Source: a virus (Duplodnaviria > Heunggongvirae > Uroviricota > Caudoviricetes). From it: a stretch of 13,194 nt of DNA. A program made the translations under genes and the position numbers. Positions 1 to 12,882 of this stretch are shown here, in pieces; the first letter of the stretch is position 1, and every line of letters begins with the position of its first letter. The DNA lies in the IMG/VR virus record IMGVR_UViG_2537561618_000005; one strand, given 5' to 3'. The notes beneath the pieces were generated by a model. The model had not been told where the DNA came from, ran no database searches, and worked only from the letters and a program-made list of their open reading frames with translations.

Positions 1-357
1 ATGTCATCGTTCAGGCACCACTTCCTCCTAAACCGATCGAACGCGGTTATGCCAGTGCAGGGTTACTTGCACGGATCCTGGTCAGCAAATATATGGAACA
101 TATCCCTTTATATCGCCAGTCAGAAATATACGCGCGACAGGGCGTGGAGCTGAGCCGTAATACCATGGTGCGCTGGGTATCAGAAATGGCAGACAAACTC
201 CGTCCTCTGTATATAGCGCTGAATGACTATGTTCTGGAGGCAGGAAAGGTGCACGCAGATGACACTCCGGTGAAAGTACTGGCCCCGGGGAACGGAAAGA
301 CGAAAACGGGTCGTCTGTGGGTATACGTCAGGGATGATCGTAATGCGGGTTCATCCC
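1..357 (+). mobile_element. Remnant of an IS66-family insertion sequence (internal part of the transposase gene only), cut off by IS2 at 358
   Basis: Frame-3 translation from nt 3 (VIVQAPLPPKPIERGYASAGLLARILVSKYMEHIPLYRQSEIYARQGVELSRNTMVRWV...ADDTPVKVLAPGNGKTKTGRLWVYVRDDRNAG) matches IS66/ISEc8-type transposases as I remember them. No IS66 terminal repeat lies in the window. Confidence 0.7.
3..357 (+). pseudogene. IS66-family transposase (TnpC-like), internal fragment; 5' end outside window, 3' end replaced by IS2
   Basis: Open frame with no plausible start in the window. The reading frame runs straight into the IS2 left end and stops inside IS2 at 405-407. Confidence 0.75.
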
Positions 358-448
358 TAGACTGGCCCCCTGAATCTCCAGACAACCAGTATCACTTATT
401 TAAGTGATAGTCTTAATACTAGTTTTTAGACTAGTCATTGGAGAACAG

Positions 449-814
449 ATGATTGATGTCTTAGGGCCGGAGAAACGCAGACGGCGTACCACACAGGAAA
501 AGATCGCAATTGTTCAGCAGAGCTTTGAACCGGGGATGACGGTCTCCCTCGTTGCCCGGCAACATGGTGTAGCAGCCAGCCAGTTATTTCTCTGGCGTAA
601 GCAATACCAGGAAGGAAGTCTTACTGCTGTGGCCGCCGGAGAACAGGTTGTTCCTGCCTCTGAACTTGCTGCCGCCATGAAGCAGATTAAAGAACTCCAG
701 CGCCTGCTCGGCAAGAAAACGATGGAAAATGAACTCCTCAAAGAAGCCGTTGAATATGGACGGGCAAAAAAGTGGATAGCGCACGCGCCCTTATTGCCCG
801 GGGATGGGGAGTAA
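449..814 (+). CDS. insC: IS2 OrfA (InsC) transposase regulatory/HTH protein
   Basis: ATG at 449 preceded by GGAGAA. Translation [56 protein letters not shown]...[18 protein letters not shown] matches IS2 InsC from memory. The ORF-track start at 404 lies inside the IS terminal repeat and is unlikely. Confidence 0.9.
766..772 (+). promoter_or_regulatory. A AAA AAG programmed -1 ribosomal frameshift heptamer of IS2 (insC to insD)
   Basis: A6G run at 766-772 where the insC frame (frame 2) overlaps the insD frame (frame 1). IS3-family elements make the OrfAB transposase by -1 frameshifting at such motifs. Confidence 0.6.
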
Positions 815-1677
815 GCTTAGTCAGCCGTTGTCTCCGGGTGTCGCGTGCGCAGTTGCACGTCATTCTCAGACGAACCGATGACTGGATGGATGGCCGCCGC
901 AGTCGTCACACTGATGATACGGATGTGCTTCTCCGTATACACCATGTTATCGGAGAGCTGCCCACGTATGGTTATCGTCGGGTATGGGCGCTGCTTCGCA
1001 GACAGGCAGAACTTGATGGTATGCCTGCGATCAATGCCAAACGTGTTTACCGGCTCATGCGCCAGAATGCGCTGTTGCTTGAGCGAAAACCTGCTGTACC
1101 GCCATCGAAACGGGCACATACAGGCAGAGTGGCCGTGAAAGAAAGCAATCAGCGATGGTGCTCTGACGGGTTCGAGTTCTGCTGTGATAACGGAGAGAGA
1201 CTGCGTGTCACGTTCGCGCTGGACTGCTGTGATCGTGAGGCACTGCACTGGGCGGTGACTACCGGCGGCTTCAACAGTGAAACAGTACAGGATGTCATGC
1301 TGGGAGCGGTGGAACGCCGCTTCGGCAACGATCTTCCGTCGTCTCCAGTGGAGTAGCTGACGGATAATGGTTCATGCTACCGGGCTAATGAAACACGCCA
1401 GTTCGCCCGGATGTTGGGACTTGAACCGAAGAACACGGCGGTGCGGAGTCCGGAGAGTAACGGAATAGCAGAGAGCTTCGTGAAAACGATAAAGCGTGAC
1501 TACATCAGTATCATGCCCAAACCAGACGGGTTAACGGCAGCAAAGAACCTTGCAGAGGCGTTCGAGCATTATAACGAATGGCATCCGCATAGTGCGCTGG
1601 GTTATCGCTCGCCACGGGAATATCTGCGGCAGCGGGCTTGTAATGGGTTAAGTGATAACAGATGTCTGGAAATATAG
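772..1677 (+). pseudogene. insD: IS2 OrfB (InsD) transposase catalytic domain, interrupted by in-frame TAG at 1354-1356
   Basis: Frame 1 is InsD-like throughout ([20 protein letters not shown]...SSPVE then [41 protein letters not shown]...NRCLEI). Codon 1354-1356 is TAG where IS2 InsD has W (VEWLTDNG) in my memory, immediately before the DNG catalytic region. The track splits it into ORFs 772-1356 and 1411-1677 in the same frame. Confidence 0.8.
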
Positions 1678-1733
1678 GGGCAAATCCAGTATAAGCCATT
1701 ATCAAACCCACCCGTAGATAGGCTTTGTAATGG

Positions 1734-2021
1734 CTACTTCTTCAGAAATGATTCGATGAATTCACGTCGAGGATGACGATAGTTCAGAATATCTTCTGGC
1801 ATCCTCATAAAGCGGTTGTTGCCGTCTTTGGCAGTAACAAAACAGCTGTGAACTCCGCAGACATCCGTTTTGATCGTGTCGCTATACTCAAAAAGCAACT
1901 GAGCCATCTTCTCTTGCCATTCTGGAGGCATAGCCTCCATGAATACTCGCGGCATCACGCAGAACGACGTATGCGTAAGACCAAACCACAGTTGCAGGTC
2001 TTTACGATATTCTTCATCCAT
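1734..2021 (-). CDS. Hypothetical 95-aa protein ([95 protein letters not shown]), family not recognised
   Basis: ATG (reverse complement of 2019-2021) preceded by AAGGT with 6-nt spacing. The ORF-track ORF 1734-2117 continues upstream only because the frame stays open into the IS911 left end. The stop is 45 bp from the IS2 right end. I could not assign a family from memory. Confidence 0.4.
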
Positions 2022-2085
2022 CGTCTTTACCTTTGTTGCAATGATGAAGTGGCACACTGAATTTGGCCACCTGAACAGAGGTGAT

Positions 2086-3284
<1,199 letters not shown>

Positions 3285-3292
3285 CCACTTCA

Positions 3293-4447
3293 TGGATGCC
3301 TGTTGAGCAGGAAGCGCCAACCCAGACTGGCTGGGATTTAACTGGCAACGCAACCGGGATTCTGGAACTCTCCGTGAAGTGCAACATGGGCGATCCGGAT
3401 AACGATTTCTTCGAGCTTCGTGCAGATGACCTGCGTGATGAGCGTTCTTACCGTCGCCGCATCCAGGCATCCGCCAAAAAACTGGCGAATAACATTGAGT
3501 CAGCGATTGCCAAACAGGCAACTGAAATGGGCTCGCTTGTTGTTCACGATACCCGCGCAATTGGTCCATCGACTGGCCTGCCTGGCTGGGATTTTGTGTC
3601 TGATGCAGAGCGACTGATGTTCTCCCGTGAGCTAAACCGCGACATGGGCATCAGTTACTTCCTGAACCCTGACGATTACCGCAAAGCAGGCCGCAACCTG
3701 GTAGATGGTGACATCTTCGGGCGCGTTCCTGAAGAAGCATATCGAAACGGTACTATTCAGCGTCAGATTGCTGGCTTTGATGAAATTCTTCGCTCACCGA
3801 AACTTCCGGCAGTTACCAAGTCAACCGCGACTGGTGTAACTGTTTCTGGTGCGCAGAAGTTTAAGCCGCAGGCATACACCCTTGATACCGATGGTAACAA
3901 AGAGAACGTCGACAACCGTGTTGCAACGGTGACCGTATCCTCCACCACCGGATTTAAGCGCGGCGACAAAATCAGCTTCATTGGTGTGAAGTTCCTGTCT
4001 CAGATGGCGAAGAATGTGCTGACTGATGACGCGACTTTCTCAATCACCCGTGTGATCGATGGTACTCACATCGAAATCACGCCGAAGCCGATTGCGCTGG
4101 ATGACGCGTCACTGACAAAAGAAGAGAAGGCTTACGCTAACGTAAACACCTCTCTTGCTGATACCACTCCGGTAAACGTTCTGAACGTGGCAACAACCAC
4201 CGCTAACGTGTTCTGGGCTGATGACTCAATCCGCCTGCTGTCTCAGCCGATCCCGGTAACCCATGAACTGTTTGCTGGCATGAAAACGTCTTCCTTCAGC
4301 ATTCCAGGTATTGGTGTTAACGGCATCTTCGCAACGCAGGGTGATATCAACACTCTGTCTGGTAAGTGCCGTATTGCTGTGTGGTATTCAGCATGTGCTG
4401 TACGACCAGAGGCAATTGGTGTTGGTCTGCCTAACCAGACCGCGTGA
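3293..4447 (+). pseudogene. P22-type major capsid (coat) protein gene, 5'-truncated by the IS911 right end (about 45 N-terminal codons missing)
   Basis: Translation [16 protein letters not shown]...[33 protein letters not shown]...[39 protein letters not shown]...[34 protein letters not shown]...[14 protein letters not shown] is collinear with P22 gp5 coat as I remember it. The homology starts exactly at the IS911 boundary, with no native start codon or RBS. Confidence 0.9.
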
Positions 4448-4455
4448 TAACCAGA

Positions 4456-4479
4456 GGGAGCTTCGGCTCCCGTTTTTAT
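4456..4479 (+). terminator. Intrinsic (rho-independent) terminator-like hairpin downstream of the coat gene
   Basis: GGGAGC-TTCG-GCTCCC perfect 6-bp GC-rich stem with tetraloop, followed by GTTTTTAT, 9 nt after the coat stop (TGA 4445-4447). Confidence 0.6.
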
Positions 4480-4491
4480 CTGGAGACAAGC

Positions 4492-4716
4492 ATGACACAC
4501 ATGATCTTTCGTCATGGCGACATGAAGAAGTGGAAAGGCGTTGGCTACGACTTTGAAATCGTGAAAGCCGAAGAGCTTCAGGAATATCTGGATGCTGGCT
4601 GGTTTTCACATCCTGATGACCTTTTGAAGGATGTTGCAGAGCCAGAAGAAAAACAGTGTAAAAAGCCTGGTCGAAAACCTAAGGCGGCAGCAGATGAACC
4701 TGACAACGAAGGGTGA
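4492..4716 (+). CDS. Small hypothetical protein (74 aa) between coat and adaptor genes
   Basis: ATG at 4492 preceded by GGAGA. Translation [74 protein letters not shown]. Its 3' end overlaps the next gene start by 23 nt. Function unknown. Confidence 0.5.
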
Positions 4717-5194
4717 TTTAGTTCTTGCGGCATTACGTAAGCTCGGTGTTGCATCAAATGCCACGTTAACCGATGTCGAACCGCAGTCTATGGAAGACGG
4801 CGTCAACGACCTTGAAATGATGATGGCTGAATGGCTTGGCGGTGATGCGTCACCTGGTATCAACGTTGGCTACATTTTTGCTGATGCAGATGTTGCTCCG
4901 GATCCGGGCGATGAGCACGGTTTATCAAATAACGCTATCAATGCCGTCATTTTCAACCTTGCCTGCCGAATTGCTCCAGATTATGCGCTGGAAGCGTCTG
5001 CAAAACTTATAACCACTGCCAGATACGGGAAAGAGCGACTCGTCAAACTGTCTGCAATGGACAGGGCAAAAGCAGCTAAATGTAAGTCCGGTTATCCAAA
5101 CCGTATGCCTGTTGGTAGTGGTAACCAGTTGGCGAAGTGGAATGGTTGGAATTACTTCCACCGAAAGGAACCTTGCGATAACGGGAGCGAATAA
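4694..5194 (+). CDS. Head-to-tail adaptor protein, P22 gp4-like (166 aa)
   Basis: [47 protein letters not shown]...[29 protein letters not shown]...[11 protein letters not shown] resembles P22 gp4 from memory, with the same length and position directly upstream of the gp10 homolog. The stop TAA overlaps the next ATG (ATAATG). Confidence 0.85.
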
Positions 5195-6612
5195 TGCCTA
5201 TTCAGCAACTTCCGCTTATGAAAGGTGTCGGCAAAGACTTCCGAAACGCCGACTATATCGACTATCTGCCAGTGAATATGCTGGCTACACCCAAAGAAAT
5301 CCTGAACAGCAGCGGATATCTTCGCCCATTCCCGGGCATTGCCAAACGTTCTGACGTGAACGGTGTATCTCGCGGCGTCGAGTACAACATGGCGCAGAAT
5401 GCTGTTTATCGCGTGTGTGGCGGCAAGCTGTACAAAGGAGAAAGTGAAGTCGGTGATGTTGCCGGAAGTGGTCGTGTATCAATGGCGCATGGTCGGACAT
5501 CACAGGCGGTAGGCGTTAATGGTCAACTGGTCGAGTATCGCTATGATGGCACGGTCAAAACCGTCTCAAACTGGCCTACAGACAGTGGATTCACTCAGTA
5601 TGAGTTAGGTTCAGTTCGCGACATTACGCGCTTACGTGGGCGTTATGCGTGGTCAAAAGACGGAACTGATTCATGGTTTATCACTGACCTTGAAGACGAA
5701 TCTCATCCTGACCGTTACAGCGCACAATATCGTGCCGAGTCTCAGCCTGACGGCATCATCGGTATCGGGACATGGCGAGACTTCATCGTCTGCTTTGGTT
5801 CATCGACTATTGAATATTTCTCCCTGACTGGCGCAACCACCGTTGGTGCCGCTTTGTATGTTGCACAACCATCGCTGATGGTGCAGAAAGGCATTGCCGG
5901 AACTTACTGCAAAACGCCATTCGCTGATTCGTATGCGTTTATCAGCAATCCGGCAACGGGTGCGCCGTCTGTGTATATCATCGACTCCGGTCAGGTGTCA
6001 CCAATTGCCAGCGCGAGCATTGAGAAAATCCTCCGCTCCTACACTGCTGATGAACTGGCTGATGGTGTGATGGAATCGCTGCGATTTGATGCTCATGAGT
6101 TGCTGATTATCCACCTTCCGCGTCACGTCCTCGTGTACGACGCATCTTCAAGCGCCAATGGCCCACAATGGTGTGTGCTGAAAACAGGTCTGTATGACGA
6201 TGTGTACCGCGCTATCGACTTCGTTTACGAAGGCAATCAGATAACGTGCGGCGATAAGCTGGAATCTGTTACCGGGAAACTGCAATTCGATATCAGCAGC
6301 CAGTACGACAAGCAACAGGAACACCTGCTGTTTACTCCACTCTTCAAAGCGGATAACGCCAGAGTGTTCGACCTTGAGGTTGAATCGTCAACTGGCGTTG
6401 CGCAGTACGCCGACCGCCTTTTTCTCTCTGCAACCACTGACTGCATCAATTACGGGCGTGAGCAGATGATTGAGCAGAATGAACCGTTCGTTTACGACAA
6501 GCGTGTTTTGTGGAAGCGAGTAGGGCGCATCAGGAAAAATGTCGGCTTCAAATTGCGCGTTATCACGAAGTCACCTGTCACTCTGTCTGGCGCTCAGATA
6601 AGGATTGAGTAA
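5194..6612 (+). CDS. Tail hub / tail accessory protein, P22 gp10-like (472 aa)
   Basis: [48 protein letters not shown]...[18 protein letters not shown]. Length and N-terminus agree with P22 gp10 as I remember it, and the gene is in the gp4-gp10-gp26 order. Confidence 0.88.
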
Positions 6613-7409
6613 TGGCTGATTCGAATCTCAATGTGCCGGTAATCATCCAAGCTACGCGGCTCGATACATCAGTCCTTCCACGCAATATCTTCTCGCAGTC
6701 GTATCTGCTTTACGTTATCGCACAGGGCACTGATGTTGGTAACGTGGCTAACAAAGCCAACGAGGCCGGACAGGGCGCTTATGATGCACAGGTCAGGAAC
6801 GATGAGCAGGATGTGATTCTCGCTGACCATGAGCAGCGAATTTCTGCTGCGGAAGCAACGCTTGTTAATCATGAGGAGCGAATCAGACAGGCAGAATCAA
6901 CTCTTCAGGACCATGAAACACGAATAGCTCAGAATGAAAGCGATATTTCGTCGCTTGACACAAGAGTTCAGTCGCTGGAGTCGCAGGTTTCAGACCATGA
7001 AACGCGCATCGATGCTCTGGAGTATGCAACCACACGCAAGAAGTCAGAGGTTGTTTACTCTGGTGTATCTGTAACCATCCCGACAGCGCCGACCAACCTT
7101 GTTAGCCTGCTGAAAACGCTCACACCGTCATCCGGCTCGTTGGCACCATTCTTCGACACCGTTAACAACAAGATGGTTGTGTTCAACGAGAACAAAACCC
7201 TGCTCTTCAAGTTGTCGATTGTCGGCACGTGGCCCAGCGGAACCGCCAACAGGTCAATGCAGCTAACCTTTTCCGGCTCTGTTCCTGACACACTGGTCAG
7301 CAGTCGTAATGCGGCGACAACAACCGACAACATCCTGTTAGCTACGTTCTTCAGCGTGGATAAAGACGGCTTTCTTGCCACAACCATCAAGATAATCGCG
7401 GAGCAGTGA
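6612..7409 (+). CDS. Tail needle protein, P22 gp26-like N-terminus and coiled-coil core with a divergent C-terminal domain (265 aa)
   Basis: N-terminus [68 protein letters not shown] is near-identical in pattern to P22 gp26. It is followed by DHE.RI heptad-type repeats. The last ~110 aa ([25 protein letters not shown]...TIKIIAEQ) do not resemble the P22 gp26 C-terminus. Confidence 0.85.
6825..7020 (+). repeat. Intragenic periodic repeats (about 42 nt / 14 aa; GACCATGA-R units) encoding the trimeric coiled-coil shaft of the tail needle
   Basis: [14 protein letters not shown] / [14 protein letters not shown] / [14 protein letters not shown] / ... / [19 protein letters not shown] or CATGA-containing units recur at 14- or 28-codon spacing. 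Confidence 0.5.
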
Positions 7410-7864
7410 TGATTACATTCAAACCAACGCGAAACATCGACCTGATAGAAGCAGTCGGAAATCACCCTGACATTATCGCCGGGAGCAACAACGGTGATGG
7501 ATACGACTACAAACCTGAATGCCGTTACTTTGAGGTGAACGTGCACGGTCAGTTTGGCGGCATTGTTTACTATCAGGAGATTCAGCCGCTGACATTAGAT
7601 TGCCACGCCATGTACCTGCCAGAGATTCGCGGCTTCAGCAAGGAAATTGGGCTGGCGTTCTGGCGATACATTCTGACTAACACCACCGTTCAGTGCGTAA
7701 CATCGTTCGCTGCACGCAAATTCCGACACGGTCAGATGTACTGCGCAATGATTGGCCTTAAGCGTGTAGGAACCATCAAGAAATACTTCAAAGGCGTGGA
7801 TGACGTGACTTTTTACAGCGCCACACGCGAAGAACTAATCGACTTCCTGAATCACGGGAGATAG
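7409..7864 (+). CDS. Hypothetical virion-associated protein at the position of P22 gene 14 (151 aa)
   Basis: ATG at 7409 overlaps the gp26-like stop (TGATG). Translation [51 protein letters not shown].... Assignment is by position only; I cannot confirm sequence similarity to P22 gp14 from memory. Confidence 0.55.
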   Translation: MITFKPTRNIDLIEAVGNHPDIIAGSNNGDGYDYKPECRYFEVNVHGQFGGIVYYQEIQPLTLDCHAMYLPEIRGFSKEIGLAFWRYILTNTTVQCVTSFAARKFRHGQMYCAMIGLKRVGTIKKYFKGVDDVTFYSATREELIDFLNHGR

Positions 7865-7866
7865 CC

Positions 7867-8475
7867 ATGTTATATGCATTTAAGCTGGGCAGAAAACTGT
7901 GCGGCGAGGAACCTTATTGCCCTGAAAAAGGCGGGAAAGGTGGCAGTTCTGATAAAAGCGCAAAGTATGCAGCAGAAGCCCAGAAGTATGCTGCAGACCT
8001 GCAAAATCAGCAGTGGCAGACGATCATGAAAAACCTTGCTCCGTTCACGCCTCTTGCGGAGCAGTATGTTAACCAGCTTCAGAACCTTTCCAGTTTAGAA
8101 GGTCAGGGGCAGGCACTTAATCAGTATTACAACTCTAAGCAGTATAAAGACCTTGCAGGGCAGGCGCGTTACCAGAGTCTTGCTGCTGCGGAGGCGACGG
8201 GTGGACTTGGTTCGACAGCCACAAGCAATCAACTGGCTACGATCGCGCCGACACTCGGTCAGTCTTGGTTATCAAATCAGATGAGCAATTACAACAATCT
8301 GGCAAACGTTGGGCTTGGTGCGCTGCAAGGTCAGGCAAACGCCGGGCAGACGTACGCCAACAACATGAGCAGCATTGCACAGCAAAGCGCAGCTCTTGCC
8401 AGCCTTTTGGGAACATCAACGCCTTGGGGCGCTGGTATTGGTGCTGGTATCGGATTGCTTGGCTCGTTGTTTTAA
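7867..8475 (+). CDS. DNA-ejection (E) protein, P22 gp7-like (202 aa)
   Basis: ATG at 7867 preceded by GGGAGA. Gln/Asn/Ala/Gly-rich low-complexity protein with a Gly-rich hydrophobic C-terminus (WGAGIGAGIGLLGSLF). Position and composition are typical of the first P22-type ejection protein. Confidence 0.8.
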   Translation: MLYAFKLGRKLCGEEPYCPEKGGKGGSSDKSAKYAAEAQKYAADLQNQQWQTIMKNLAPFTPLAEQYVNQLQNLSSLEGQGQALNQYYNSKQYKDLAGQARYQSLAAAEATGGLGSTATSNQLATIAPTLGQSWLSNQMSNYNNLANVGLGALQGQANAGQTYANNMSSIAQQSAALASLLGTSTPWGAGIGAGIGLLGSLF

Positions 8476-8484
8476 GGGGTAATC

Positions 8485-9816
8485 ATGGCTACTTGGCAAG
8501 GAACAAACGGCGGATTGTTGGCTGGTATCGGCGGCGTCAACTCAAACGCTCCGAGCGTAAATGACATCGGCAATACGCTTCAGCTTATCAGGCAGAACAA
8601 TGATATTGAGCGTTCAGGCGCTAACAATGTTGGGCTGACTGCTTTGCAAGGTCTTTCAGGTATTGCGGGTGTTTTTCAGCAGGAAAAGCAGGCTCAGCGG
8701 CAGAAAGAATTTCAGCAGGCGTACGCTAATGCTTATGCGTCTGGTGATCGCGGTGCTTTGCGTCAGTTGGCTACTCAATATCCAGACCAGATTGAATCCG
8801 TTCGTAAAGGCATGGGATTCATTGATGAAGAGCAGCGTAATTCTATCGGCACCTTAGCGGCTGGCGCACGCCTTGCGTCATCGTCTCCAGAAGCAATGCA
8901 ATCATGGCTGCAAAACAACGCCGGTGAGTTAGCTCGTGTTGGCGTTAATCCTCATGACGTCGCTCAGATGTACCAACAGAACCCGCGGCAGTTCGGCGAA
9001 TTTGTCGATCACCTGGGGATGAACAGTCTCGGGCCCGAAAAATACTTTGACCTACAGGATAAAATGCAGGGTCGCCAGGTTACCATGCGCGGTCAGGATC
9101 TGGATTCGCAAACCGCCGCTCGGAATCAGGCAATCACAATGCGCGGACAAGATATCCAGGCGAATTTAGGTCAGCAGCGCATTAATCTGGACGCAGAAAC
9201 AAACCGCATTAACAACGAAAATAAGCGCCTTGACCGGATGCTATCAGCAGAAACTAACGACCTGAAGCGCCAGGAAATACAGAGCCGCATAGCAGCCAAC
9301 AACCAGCAGTTGCAGCAGAAGCAGCAAGCGCTAAATGATGGCTACAAAGACGGCATCAACACCCTCACAACCAGCATGTTCACTCTGAACGATATCGTTA
9401 GTTCTCCTTCACTTAAGAGCATTACAGGCTTACGTGGAGTAATCCCCAACGTTCCAGGCTCACAGGCTGCAGACACTCAGGCACGACTTGATACCTTTAA
9501 ATCACAAGCATACCTGACAGCGGTTCAGGCCATGCGAGGCATGGGCGCACTTTCTGATGCCGAGGGCAAAAAGCTCGACCAGGCTGTTGGTTCGCTGCAG
9601 AACTCGCAGAGCGAGGAGTCCTTTCGTCGCAACGCTGGCGTCATCCTGAACACGCTCAACCAGAAGCGTAATGAGGCGGTTGGTAAGTACGTTCAGCAAA
9701 ACGGTATCAAGCGAGTGGAAGCGCCTCAGGCTTCTATAGATTACCTGAAGCAGCACCCCGAGCTGTCAATCGACTTCATTAATCGCTACGGATATCTTCC
9801 ATCTTTGGGGCAGTAA
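8485..9816 (+). CDS. DNA-ejection (E) protein, P22 gp20-like (443 aa)
   Basis: ATG at 8485 preceded by AAGGGG. Translation MATWQGTNGGLLAGIGGVNSNAPS.... Gln-rich with internal TMRGQD repeats. Position and size match the second ejection protein. Confidence 0.8.
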   Translation: MATWQGTNGGLLAGIGGVNSNAPSVNDIGNTLQLIRQNNDIERSGANNVGLTALQGLSGIAGVFQQEKQAQRQKEFQQAYANAYASGDRGALRQLATQYPDQIESVRKGMGFIDEEQRNSIGTLAAGARLASSSPEAMQSWLQNNAGELARVGVNPHDVAQMYQQNPRQFGEFVDHLGMNSLGPEKYFDLQDKMQGRQVTMRGQDLDSQTAARNQAITMRGQDIQANLGQQRINLDAETNRINNENKRLDRMLSAETNDLKRQEIQSRIAANNQQLQQKQQALNDGYKDGINTLTTSMFTLNDIVSSPSLKSITGLRGVIPNVPGSQAADTQARLDTFKSQAYLTAVQAMRGMGALSDAEGKKLDQAVGSLQNSQSEESFRRNAGVILNTLNQKRNEAVGKYVQQNGIKRVEAPQASIDYLKQHPELSIDFINRYGYLPSLGQ

Positions 9817-11547
9817 ATGGCTAATTACCGTGATTTGTTAGAGCAGGCTGGCGCACGTTACGGTGTGCCAGAAGGGTTGATGACTGCACTGGGTGCCAAG
9901 GAGTCTTCTTACAACCCTGCCGCAGTAAGCTCCGCCGGGGCTGTAGGATTGACTCAGGTCATGCCTGGGACATGGCGTGATATGGGTTATACCGATGAGC
10001 AAATGCAAAACCCCGAATATCAGGCTGACGCTGGCGCGCGCTATCTGGCAAAGATGTACCAGCAGTTTGGTAACTGGCGTGACGCTCTTCAGGCTTATCA
10101 CGACGGTCCCGGCAACGTTATGAAGGCAAAGCGTGGTGAATATACGCCAGGACCTGAAGGCCGCGGTTACGTTGATGATCGCTTTGCTCAATGGGCTGGT
10201 GACCCGGTGACAGACTCAACAGTCGAACAGCGCGCCACCTCTGCAAAGGTACATCCTCAGCAAGACCCTAACAACCCGTTTGCACAACTGGAAGTACAGT
10301 CATCCGAACAAGTATCGGCATCAGGTGTGCAGTCAGACCCAAATAATCCATTTGCTCAGATTGAGCAGCAGGCAGCCAGTCAGCAGCCACCTCAACCCGT
10401 AAGTTCTGTCGCACCGAAACCTGTTCAGCAACAAACAGTTAATCAGGCCAATAATGCACCAACACGGGAAGAACCATCATTGATGCAACAAGCTGGCGAT
10501 TGGCTCACTGGTGGTCAAAGTGCAGGGCAAATTGCAGAACAGGCTGGTCGTGGTCTGGTAAACATACCATTTGACGTATTGCAGGGTGGCGCAAGTCTGA
10601 TTAATGCAATCAGTCAGGGGCTTGGGGGGCCAAAAGTATTGGATGATGTTTATCGTCCAGTAGACAGACCGACAGACCCCTACGCGCAAGCTGGAGAGTC
10701 AATAGGCGGTTATCTTGTTCCTGGAGCAGGTGTAGCTGGAAACATGGTCATTGGTTCTCTCGCTGACGCGGCGAATCAACGGGGTGATTTTGCCGAAAAT
10801 GCCGCTATTAATGCCGGACTTAGCATTGCTACGCATGGCCTGATAAATGGCGTTACCCGTGGTGTTCGTGGTGCATCAAATATAATTAGTGGCAATAAAA
10901 CATCTGCACAGAGAGCGACCACTGCGCCAACAGAAACATCACCATTCTCCGGTGATGCCGCTGCAGCAACAAATCCTGCGGTTCATGCCGCAGAGGCAAG
11001 AGTAGCACAAGGTGTACCAATGACGCCTGCGACGAAGAACCCAGAGGAAGTCGTTCGCACAGTAGCAGCACAAAAAAGGCCAAATCTCGCTTCATCGCTT
11101 GATGAACTAGATATCAATCCTCAGGCTGAAGTTCTGGAGTCTGCTGAAAGGCTTAATGTTGATTCATTACTCCCTTCACACTTTTCCGGGAACGAGCAAT
11201 ACAAGGCAGTTGAGCAAGCAATCAAGTCCCGTGCGGGTTCTGCTCTACAGGTGCAGGAAAATGAAGCAATCAGGCAGCTAGCACAGGGCGCGGGTGAGAT
11301 AATTGATCGCGTTTCCGGTGCAAAAGATGCTCTTGGTATGAGCGACAAGTTTATTGATACGGTCAATGGAAGAATGTCTGCGCTGATGAAACGAAGCGAC
11401 CAGCTTTATCGCAATGTTGAAAAGGCGATGCCTGCAGGTGCAAAAATTGATGCGCCATCAACAAGGTCAATGCTCAAACAGGTGGCAGAAGATCTTGGCG
11501 GGATGAAAAACCTTGACCCTATTGAAAAGAGAGTTGAGGTAGCCTGA
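9817..11547 (+). CDS. DNA-ejection / internal virion protein, P22 gp16-position, with N-terminal lytic transglycosylase (SLT)-like domain (576 aa)
   Basis: ATG at 9817 directly after the gp20-like stop (TAAATG). The N-terminal ~110 aa carry family-1 lytic transglycosylase motifs ([28 protein letters not shown], then AYHDGPGN). Two DPNNPFAQ peptide repeats occur mid-protein. Confidence 0.8.

Positions 11548-11995: not shown

Positions 11996-11999
<4 letters not shown>
11673..11999 (+). CDS. IS629-like OrfA (HTH / leucine-zipper transposase N-terminal protein)
   Basis: [108 protein letters not shown] matches IS629/IS1203 OrfA from memory. Confidence 0.9.

Positions 12000-12882
<883 letters not shown>

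Follow-up and report, generated by a model that had tools for sequence, protein, structure and literature searches.

IS2 is one of five insertion sequences (IS) that have expanded in all Shigella, and Shigella-specific IS2 variants are thought to have spread through pINV plasmids (PMC7373316). The catalytic triad of its transposase, OrfAB, consists of D240, D306, and E342 in a catalytic core that covers residues 236-398, and the substitution V301M, close to the W303 site considered below, abolishes DNA binding (PMC3219604). Background transposition of a transposase-null IS2 has been ascribed to chromosomal IS2 copies (PMC3219604). Elements that have both ends and no working transposase are also found among trans-mobilised elements, e.g. 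bacterial MITEs and eukaryotic full-length defective elements of the Ac/Ds type. Gene conversion that keeps non-functional IS copies was described in Wolbachia (Cordaux 2009, Mol Biol Evol 26:1679, as cited in PMC3205602). Here, we compare with these systems an IS2 copy whose transposase gene is interrupted by an amber codon.

The window, i.e. the whole stretch of 13,194 nucleotides that was analysed, corresponds over its full length to contig AFHC01000013.1 (assembly GCA_000213475.2) from Shigella flexneri 4343-70, as identified by an exact match to a neighbouring phage protein; AFHC00000000 is given as this strain in PMC5429569. The contig is a mosaic of elements, with the following features.

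1-357, plus strand: ISSfl3 (IS66-family) transposase gene fragment, interrupted by IS2 (left flank)
358-1688, plus strand: full-length IS2, IS3 family, 1331 bp (alignment to K-12 IS2A; ends TAGACTGG...CAAATCCA identical)
358-399, plus strand: IRL, left terminal inverted repeat (alignment; repeat length according to PMC3219604)
449-814, plus strand: orfA (insC), 121 aa, intact (open reading frame; Pfam HTH_Tnp_1)
766-772, plus strand: A6G programmed -1 frameshift site, through which orfA and orfB give OrfAB (in the orfA/orfB overlap; role according to PMC3219604)
772-1353, plus strand: 5' part of orfB (insD), codons 1-194 (Pfam HTH_21 and partial rve)
1354-1356, plus strand: amber TAG in place of Trp (TGG), W195 of InsD, equal to W303 of OrfAB
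1357-1677, plus strand: remainder of orfB, untranslated and in frame, with the codons of D306 and E342
1648-1688, plus strand: IRR, right terminal inverted repeat, 41 bp (identical to K-12 IS2A; length according to PMC3219604)
1689-2043, no strand assigned: prophage DNA, 355 bp (right flank)
2045-3293: IS911
3294-11547: P22-like prophage remnant
from about 11618: IS629

As a reference, we used IS2A of E. coli K-12 (NC_000913.3 381260-382590, annotated insC1/insD1), to which the IS2 of the window is 99.3% identical over 1331 bp, with 9 nucleotide differences. The two elements share their length, ends, orfA, and A6G site; the full-length identity, the two overlapping frames (0/-1) with A6G, and the terminal repeats all identify the window copy as IS2. 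It is unlike IS2A in that its OrfAB stops at residue 302 and in that it has no target duplication. The IRL of about 42 bp and the IRR of 41 bp, which ends in CA-3', are those of K-12 save for the IRL-internal positions 389 and 399-400, and these differences are common to intact Shigella copies too. At its inner end, the IRL contains the palindrome TCACTTA-NN-TAAGTGA, of which positions 399-400 (IS2 positions 42-43) form the loop; they read TT here and AA in K-12, and both forms are present among the IS2 copies of one genome (CP026765.1). From the sequence of these copies, the TT/AA switch has the appearance of a hairpin loop that has inverted repeatedly.

The amber codon lies in the stretch GAG TAG CTG ACG GAT (window 1351-1365), which is translated as E-stop-L-T-D. 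The sole change in the codon is at position 1355, where the G of K-12 is an A in the window, converting TGG into TAG. In the list of open reading frames, the orfB frame opens at 772 and closes at 1356, and an 88-aa frame at 1411-1677 resumes the same frame. Compared with the K-12 InsD protein, the complete frame 772-1677 shows L95I and W195stop as its only differences, so the sequence past the stop is in frame and identical to InsD. The original prediction, made from the window alone, had placed a single G-to-A transition at the Trp position of VEWLTDNG, followed by an in-frame, InsD-like sequence, and the alignment bears out each of these points: the reference has TGG, no residue differs after W195stop, and the transition is also one of only two differences between the window IS2 and the closest intact S. 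flexneri copies (pINV CP026771.1 26703-28033 and several copies in CP026765.1). The other is the synonymous T/C difference at 1293, the amber position itself reading A in the window and G in the intact copies. Inspection for a hotspot that could account for the change at 1355 (a Dcm site or quasi-palindrome correction around CTCCAGTGGAG) gave no predictive motif.

When orfA is read through the A6G site into orfB, the stop corresponds to residue 303 of OrfAB, three codons ahead of the catalytic D306. The codon of the first catalytic Asp, D240 (1165-1167), is upstream of the stop, and those of D306 (1363-1365) and E342 (1471-1473) are both 3' of it. Because the stop precedes both codons, the product is without D306 and E342: the DDE core is thus incomplete, its codons being present in the DNA while translation stops at W303 and D240 alone is kept. 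The Pfam rve domain, which extends over residues 232-335 in the repaired protein, is cut at 302, and in the shortened protein the match runs up to residue 294 (profile position 65 of 102). The stop therefore adjoins the catalytic region, as had been anticipated. The 302-residue frameshifted product keeps the DNA-binding and oligomerisation parts as well as D240 and cannot catalyse transposition. As encoded, the transposase must be inactive as a DDE enzyme, and any movement requires transposase from other copies; the expected dependence of the element on complementation in trans fits a product that lacks D306 and E342. Given that its ends, orfA, and frameshift site are intact, the element should stay a substrate for the transposase of other copies. 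RefSeq annotation already marks such IS2 copies with 'internal stop'.

The same allele occurs in many other IS2 copies. The exact 194-aa shortened product is encoded on 21 contigs, including at least 4 protein accessions from strain 4343-70 itself, and it occurs on the I95 background on 25 further contigs. The intact L95 protein (Q7CE70_SHIFL) is found on 319 contigs. Full-length TAG copies are carried by the complete chromosomes CP026765.1, CP026810.1, LR213452.1, CP026772.1, CP000266.1, and UGYS01000001.1 and by the pINV plasmid CP026771.1 of S. flexneri Y 93-3063, and TAG was confirmed in the DNA of loci L005-L014, L030, L033, and L034. In all, at least 9 genomic sites have TAG, in a number of complete Shigella genomes and on one pINV plasmid. 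Perfect 5-bp duplications (GGCAG, ACTGC, GGGAT, GCGGA, CCATC, and GTGGC) flank the majority of the TAG copies, and there are 0-5 differences between the full-length ones and the window copy. The original prediction had also called the lesion recent in the window copy, and this part did not hold. Since many sites and genomes share TAG, most of them with target duplications, the allele was inherited or copied, not created in the window copy. We consider it likely that the amber codon is a shared allele circulating among S. flexneri IS2 copies, beside intact ones, and that it spreads by the two routes described below.

Outside Shigella, the allele is rare among the records searched. An exact 61-mer containing TAG was found in 1 of 5778 E. 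coli complete-genome records with an IS2 region, an ETEC plasmid, and in 7 of 2690 plasmids with IS2, namely 5 of S. dysenteriae, 1 of S. flexneri, and the same E. coli ETEC plasmid. An exact 49-mer scan of contigs from a collection with one genome per species, in which Shigella is evidently no separate species, did not retrieve the TAG allele. We found no description of a nonsense subfamily of IS2 in Shigella in a limited literature search, which is no proof of absence. Because TAG stands on at least 4 haplotype backgrounds, including a 5'-truncated copy on an S. dysenteriae pINV and the E. coli ETEC plasmid, the mutation may have arisen more than once at this codon. The 5'-truncated copy (S. 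dysenteriae ATCC 49346, pINV NZ_CP026833.1, about 195647-196528; L023) has TAG on an S. dysenteriae haplotype and adjoins a head-to-head IRL-IRL palindrome centred on a TCACTTAAATAAGTGA hairpin; all 4 full-length IS2 copies of NZ_CP026833.1 have TGG.

The flanks of the window element do not belong to a single insertion site. No contiguous counterpart of the whole window, or of its first 2100 bases, was found in complete E. coli genomes or plasmids. The left flank gives a Pfam DDE_Tnp_IS66 match (called gene 93-407) and shows 100% identity with copies of ISSfl3, and the ISSfl3/IS2 junction is that of locus L053 in CP026765.1, where ISSfl3 resumes after the duplication ATCCC and where the codon is TGG; the same junction is seen in an independent draft contig, LAHZ01000241.1. 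On the right, IS2 borders on GTATAAGCC..., as it does at the prophage site in CP026765.1 (L007) and UGYS01000001.1 (L033), where both copies have TAG. The window element accordingly lacks a 5-bp target duplication (ATCCC on the left versus GTATA on the right), its left flank coming from one IS2 site and its right flank from another. The distance to the right end of IS2 is 335 bp for TAG and 396 bp for 1293T, and on this account we assign both to the prophage-side copy.

The most likely origin of the hybrid flanks is an assembler that walked through the IS2 repeat and would thereby have joined the left junction of the ISSfl3 site to the right junction of the prophage site; the alternative is a real recombination between two IS2 copies in a differently arranged genome. 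Carried further, the same idea would make the amber-bearing element of the window a product of draft assembly, i.e. a collapsed consensus or a mis-join, so that TAG does not belong to one physical element with both flanks. We lean slightly towards this reading. In its favour are the missing target duplication, a left site that holds a TGG copy in CP026765.1, a right site that holds TAG copies in CP026765.1 and UGYS01000001.1, and a contig that starts and ends within repeats; in addition, the IS911 of this contig differs by one base in a homopolymer, a difference found in no other copy. The two sites are about 1.8 Mb apart and in the same orientation in CP026765.1, so a real recombination between them would delete much of the chromosome; the arrangement in 4343-70 may nevertheless differ from that in CP026765.1, as IS recombination heavily rearranges Shigella genomes. 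A collapsed consensus should, moreover, give the majority codon, TGG, and at this right junction TAG recurs in complete assemblies made independently. An assembly artefact would in any case concern the flanks and leave the existence of the nonsense allele unaffected. A substitution of this kind is atypical of homopolymer error and the same allele recurs in independent complete assemblies, so the amber allele itself is genuine, though its pairing with exactly these two flanks is doubtful. We infer the allele state of the physical IS2 copy or copies in strain 4343-70 from the contig together with other strains.

Other elements of the contig are also disrupted. In IS911, right after the orfA start codon (2119-2125), the window has A6 and the copy at L029, aligned base by base, has A7; the lack of one A throws orfA out of frame at codon 4 and is the sole difference from the L029 copy, and each of the seven remaining copies also aligns by BLAST with a gap of one base. 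Either the frameshift is real or the homopolymer was misread in sequencing. The orfB of IS629 (11996-12882) is split into overlapping frames of 118 and 222 aa, and from its sequence IS629 appears to be defective in this contig too. As assembled, all 4 IS of the window (ISSfl3, IS2, IS911, and IS629) are without an intact transposase gene. Between IS911 and IS629, the prophage remnant (3294-11547) encodes a coat protein without a start, gp4-like and gp10-like head-completion proteins, a tail needle, a DUF2824 protein, and gp7/gp20/gp16-like ejection proteins. Compared with the prophage of CP026765.1 (L007), the window lacks about 6.5 kb, with lysis genes, terminase, portal, and scaffold, from the interval that separates the coat gene from the IS2 flank. 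In several S. flexneri chromosomes (CP178302.1, CP020339.1, and CP000266.1; L028, L029, and L031, respectively), an intact ISSfl3 borders directly on the terminal 281 bp of IS2, beyond which phage lysis genes lie; this IS2 remnant begins at IS2 position 1051, and its junction with ISSfl3 is in the opposite sense to that of the window.

At four sites, the codon found in the same IS2 insertion depends on the strain.

hemY site, duplication ACTGC: TAG in CP026810.1; TGG in CP026765.1 and CP026803.1
dcuS site: TAG in CP026810.1 and CP000266.1; TGG in CP026765.1
kdgT site, duplication GGGAT: TAG in CP026810.1; TGG in CP026765.1
IS1-truncated site: TAG in CP026765.1 and UGYS01000001.1; TGG in WACK01000005.1

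These 4 orthologous insertions have identical flanks and duplications and different internal alleles between strains, the pattern of concerted evolution. That one insertion site holds TAG in one strain and TGG in another shows gene conversion between dispersed copies. In CP026810.1, the three examined copies agree in haplotype, with AA at 399-400, 1293C, and TAG, and at two of its sites the difference from the CP026765.1 orthologue affects 399-400 as well as 1355, positions separated by 956 bp. One route of spread is thus gene conversion that copies TAG between IS2 elements. The situation is like the one reported for Wolbachia (Cordaux 2009, cited in PMC3205602), defective and intact alleles being exchanged among dispersed copies in one genome, and it is unlike it in that functional copies are the majority here and in that the host is a recently IS-expanded pathogen (PMC7373316).

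A second route is suggested by the TAG copy on pINV CP026771.1 of S. flexneri Y 93-3063, which is 100% identical to the window IS2 and is flanked by GTGGC. The empty site of this copy, rebuilt from its flanks, occurs uninterrupted in at least 15 of the S. flexneri pINV records listed, among them pCP301 and pWR100, with 99.8-100% identity. The insertion, occupied in 93-3063 and empty in these related plasmids, is therefore lineage-specific. By this route, the transposase of an intact copy would move a defective TAG copy, and at the pINV GTGGC site the TAG copy was probably mobilised in trans. Potential helpers are at hand: beside its TAG copies, of which there are at least 3, CP026765.1 contains at least 8 intact ones, and pINV CP026771.1 has one of each, such per-genome IS2 counts being lower bounds. 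In terms of sequence, the TAG copies have the makeup of non-autonomous elements, with intact ends, no functional transposase, and autonomous relatives in the same genome (CP026765.1 and CP026771.1). The intact S. flexneri IS2 (Q7CE70_SHIFL; CP026771.1 26703-28033), which is the same as the window copy but for 1293 and 1355 and which has TGG and a full 301-aa InsD, is the evident progenitor and the likely helper of the TAG copies, its 319 contigs comparing with the 21 and 25 of the shortened products. The TAG copies are like trans-mobilised elements in having both ends and no working transposase and in existing as several copies beside autonomous relatives, one of them at a lineage-specific site with a duplication. 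They are unlike them in being full length, with one point mutation rather than an internal deletion, and in owing much of their spread to gene conversion, not to transposition; their mobilisation is, in addition, deduced here from sequence.

Could conversion account for the entire distribution? TAG copies would then never transpose, and homologous recombination would write the allele into existing IS2 insertions. The strain-dependent codon at the four orthologous sites fits this account, as do the linked markers co-converted over 956 bp in CP026810.1, and there is a precedent for defective IS copies, at least as it is cited in PMC3205602 (Cordaux 2009). The pINV copy of 93-3063 is what makes us regard conversion alone as improbable, because it occupies a site that is empty in at least 15 related plasmids and has the full TAG haplotype (1293T and 1355A) within a perfect duplication. 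An intact copy could have inserted there and later have been converted at both 1293 and 1355, a sequence of events that is possible and less parsimonious than mobilisation in trans. The TAG copies might, on another account, retain weak autonomy, if the UAG, with C as the next base, were sometimes translated, by read-through or with the help of an amber suppressor of the host, to give a little full-length OrfAB. UAG is leaky in some contexts in E. coli, the frame past the stop is perfectly preserved, and TAG copies are present at many sites. An intact frame is expected anyway of a young allele homogenised by conversion, and intact helpers are plentiful; OrfAB already relies on a rare frameshift, so that read-through would make it rarer still, and we find residual autonomy scarcely credible. 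We therefore retain a shared amber allele that is spread by conversion and, probably, by mobilisation in trans.

Whether the allele confers an effect of its own is a separate matter. The 302-residue OrfAB could poison the full-length transposase or occupy IS2 ends, so that the amber allele would be favoured. The KP P-elements, with their truncated repressor, are a model for an inhibitory shortened transposase, and by analogy with them we hold such a benefit to be conceivable and very doubtful. If the TAG product were inhibitory, conversion to TAG would damp IS2 expansion in S. flexneri.

In summary, the window element is an ordinary IS2 with a transposase pseudogene, and it matters little alone. 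The underlying phenomena are established; what is added is that the IS2 copies of S. flexneri are polymorphic for this amber allele, which they share by gene conversion and probably by mobilisation in trans. In draft assemblies like AFHC01000013.1, IS-internal sequence is not safely assigned to the flanks with which it is printed. As gene conversion alters the allele at a given IS2 site between strains, IS-internal SNPs are poor markers of descent. The IS2 counts of Shigella include copies unable to move alone, so activity estimates that rely on copy number, such as those of PMC7373316, lump defective with autonomous IS2.
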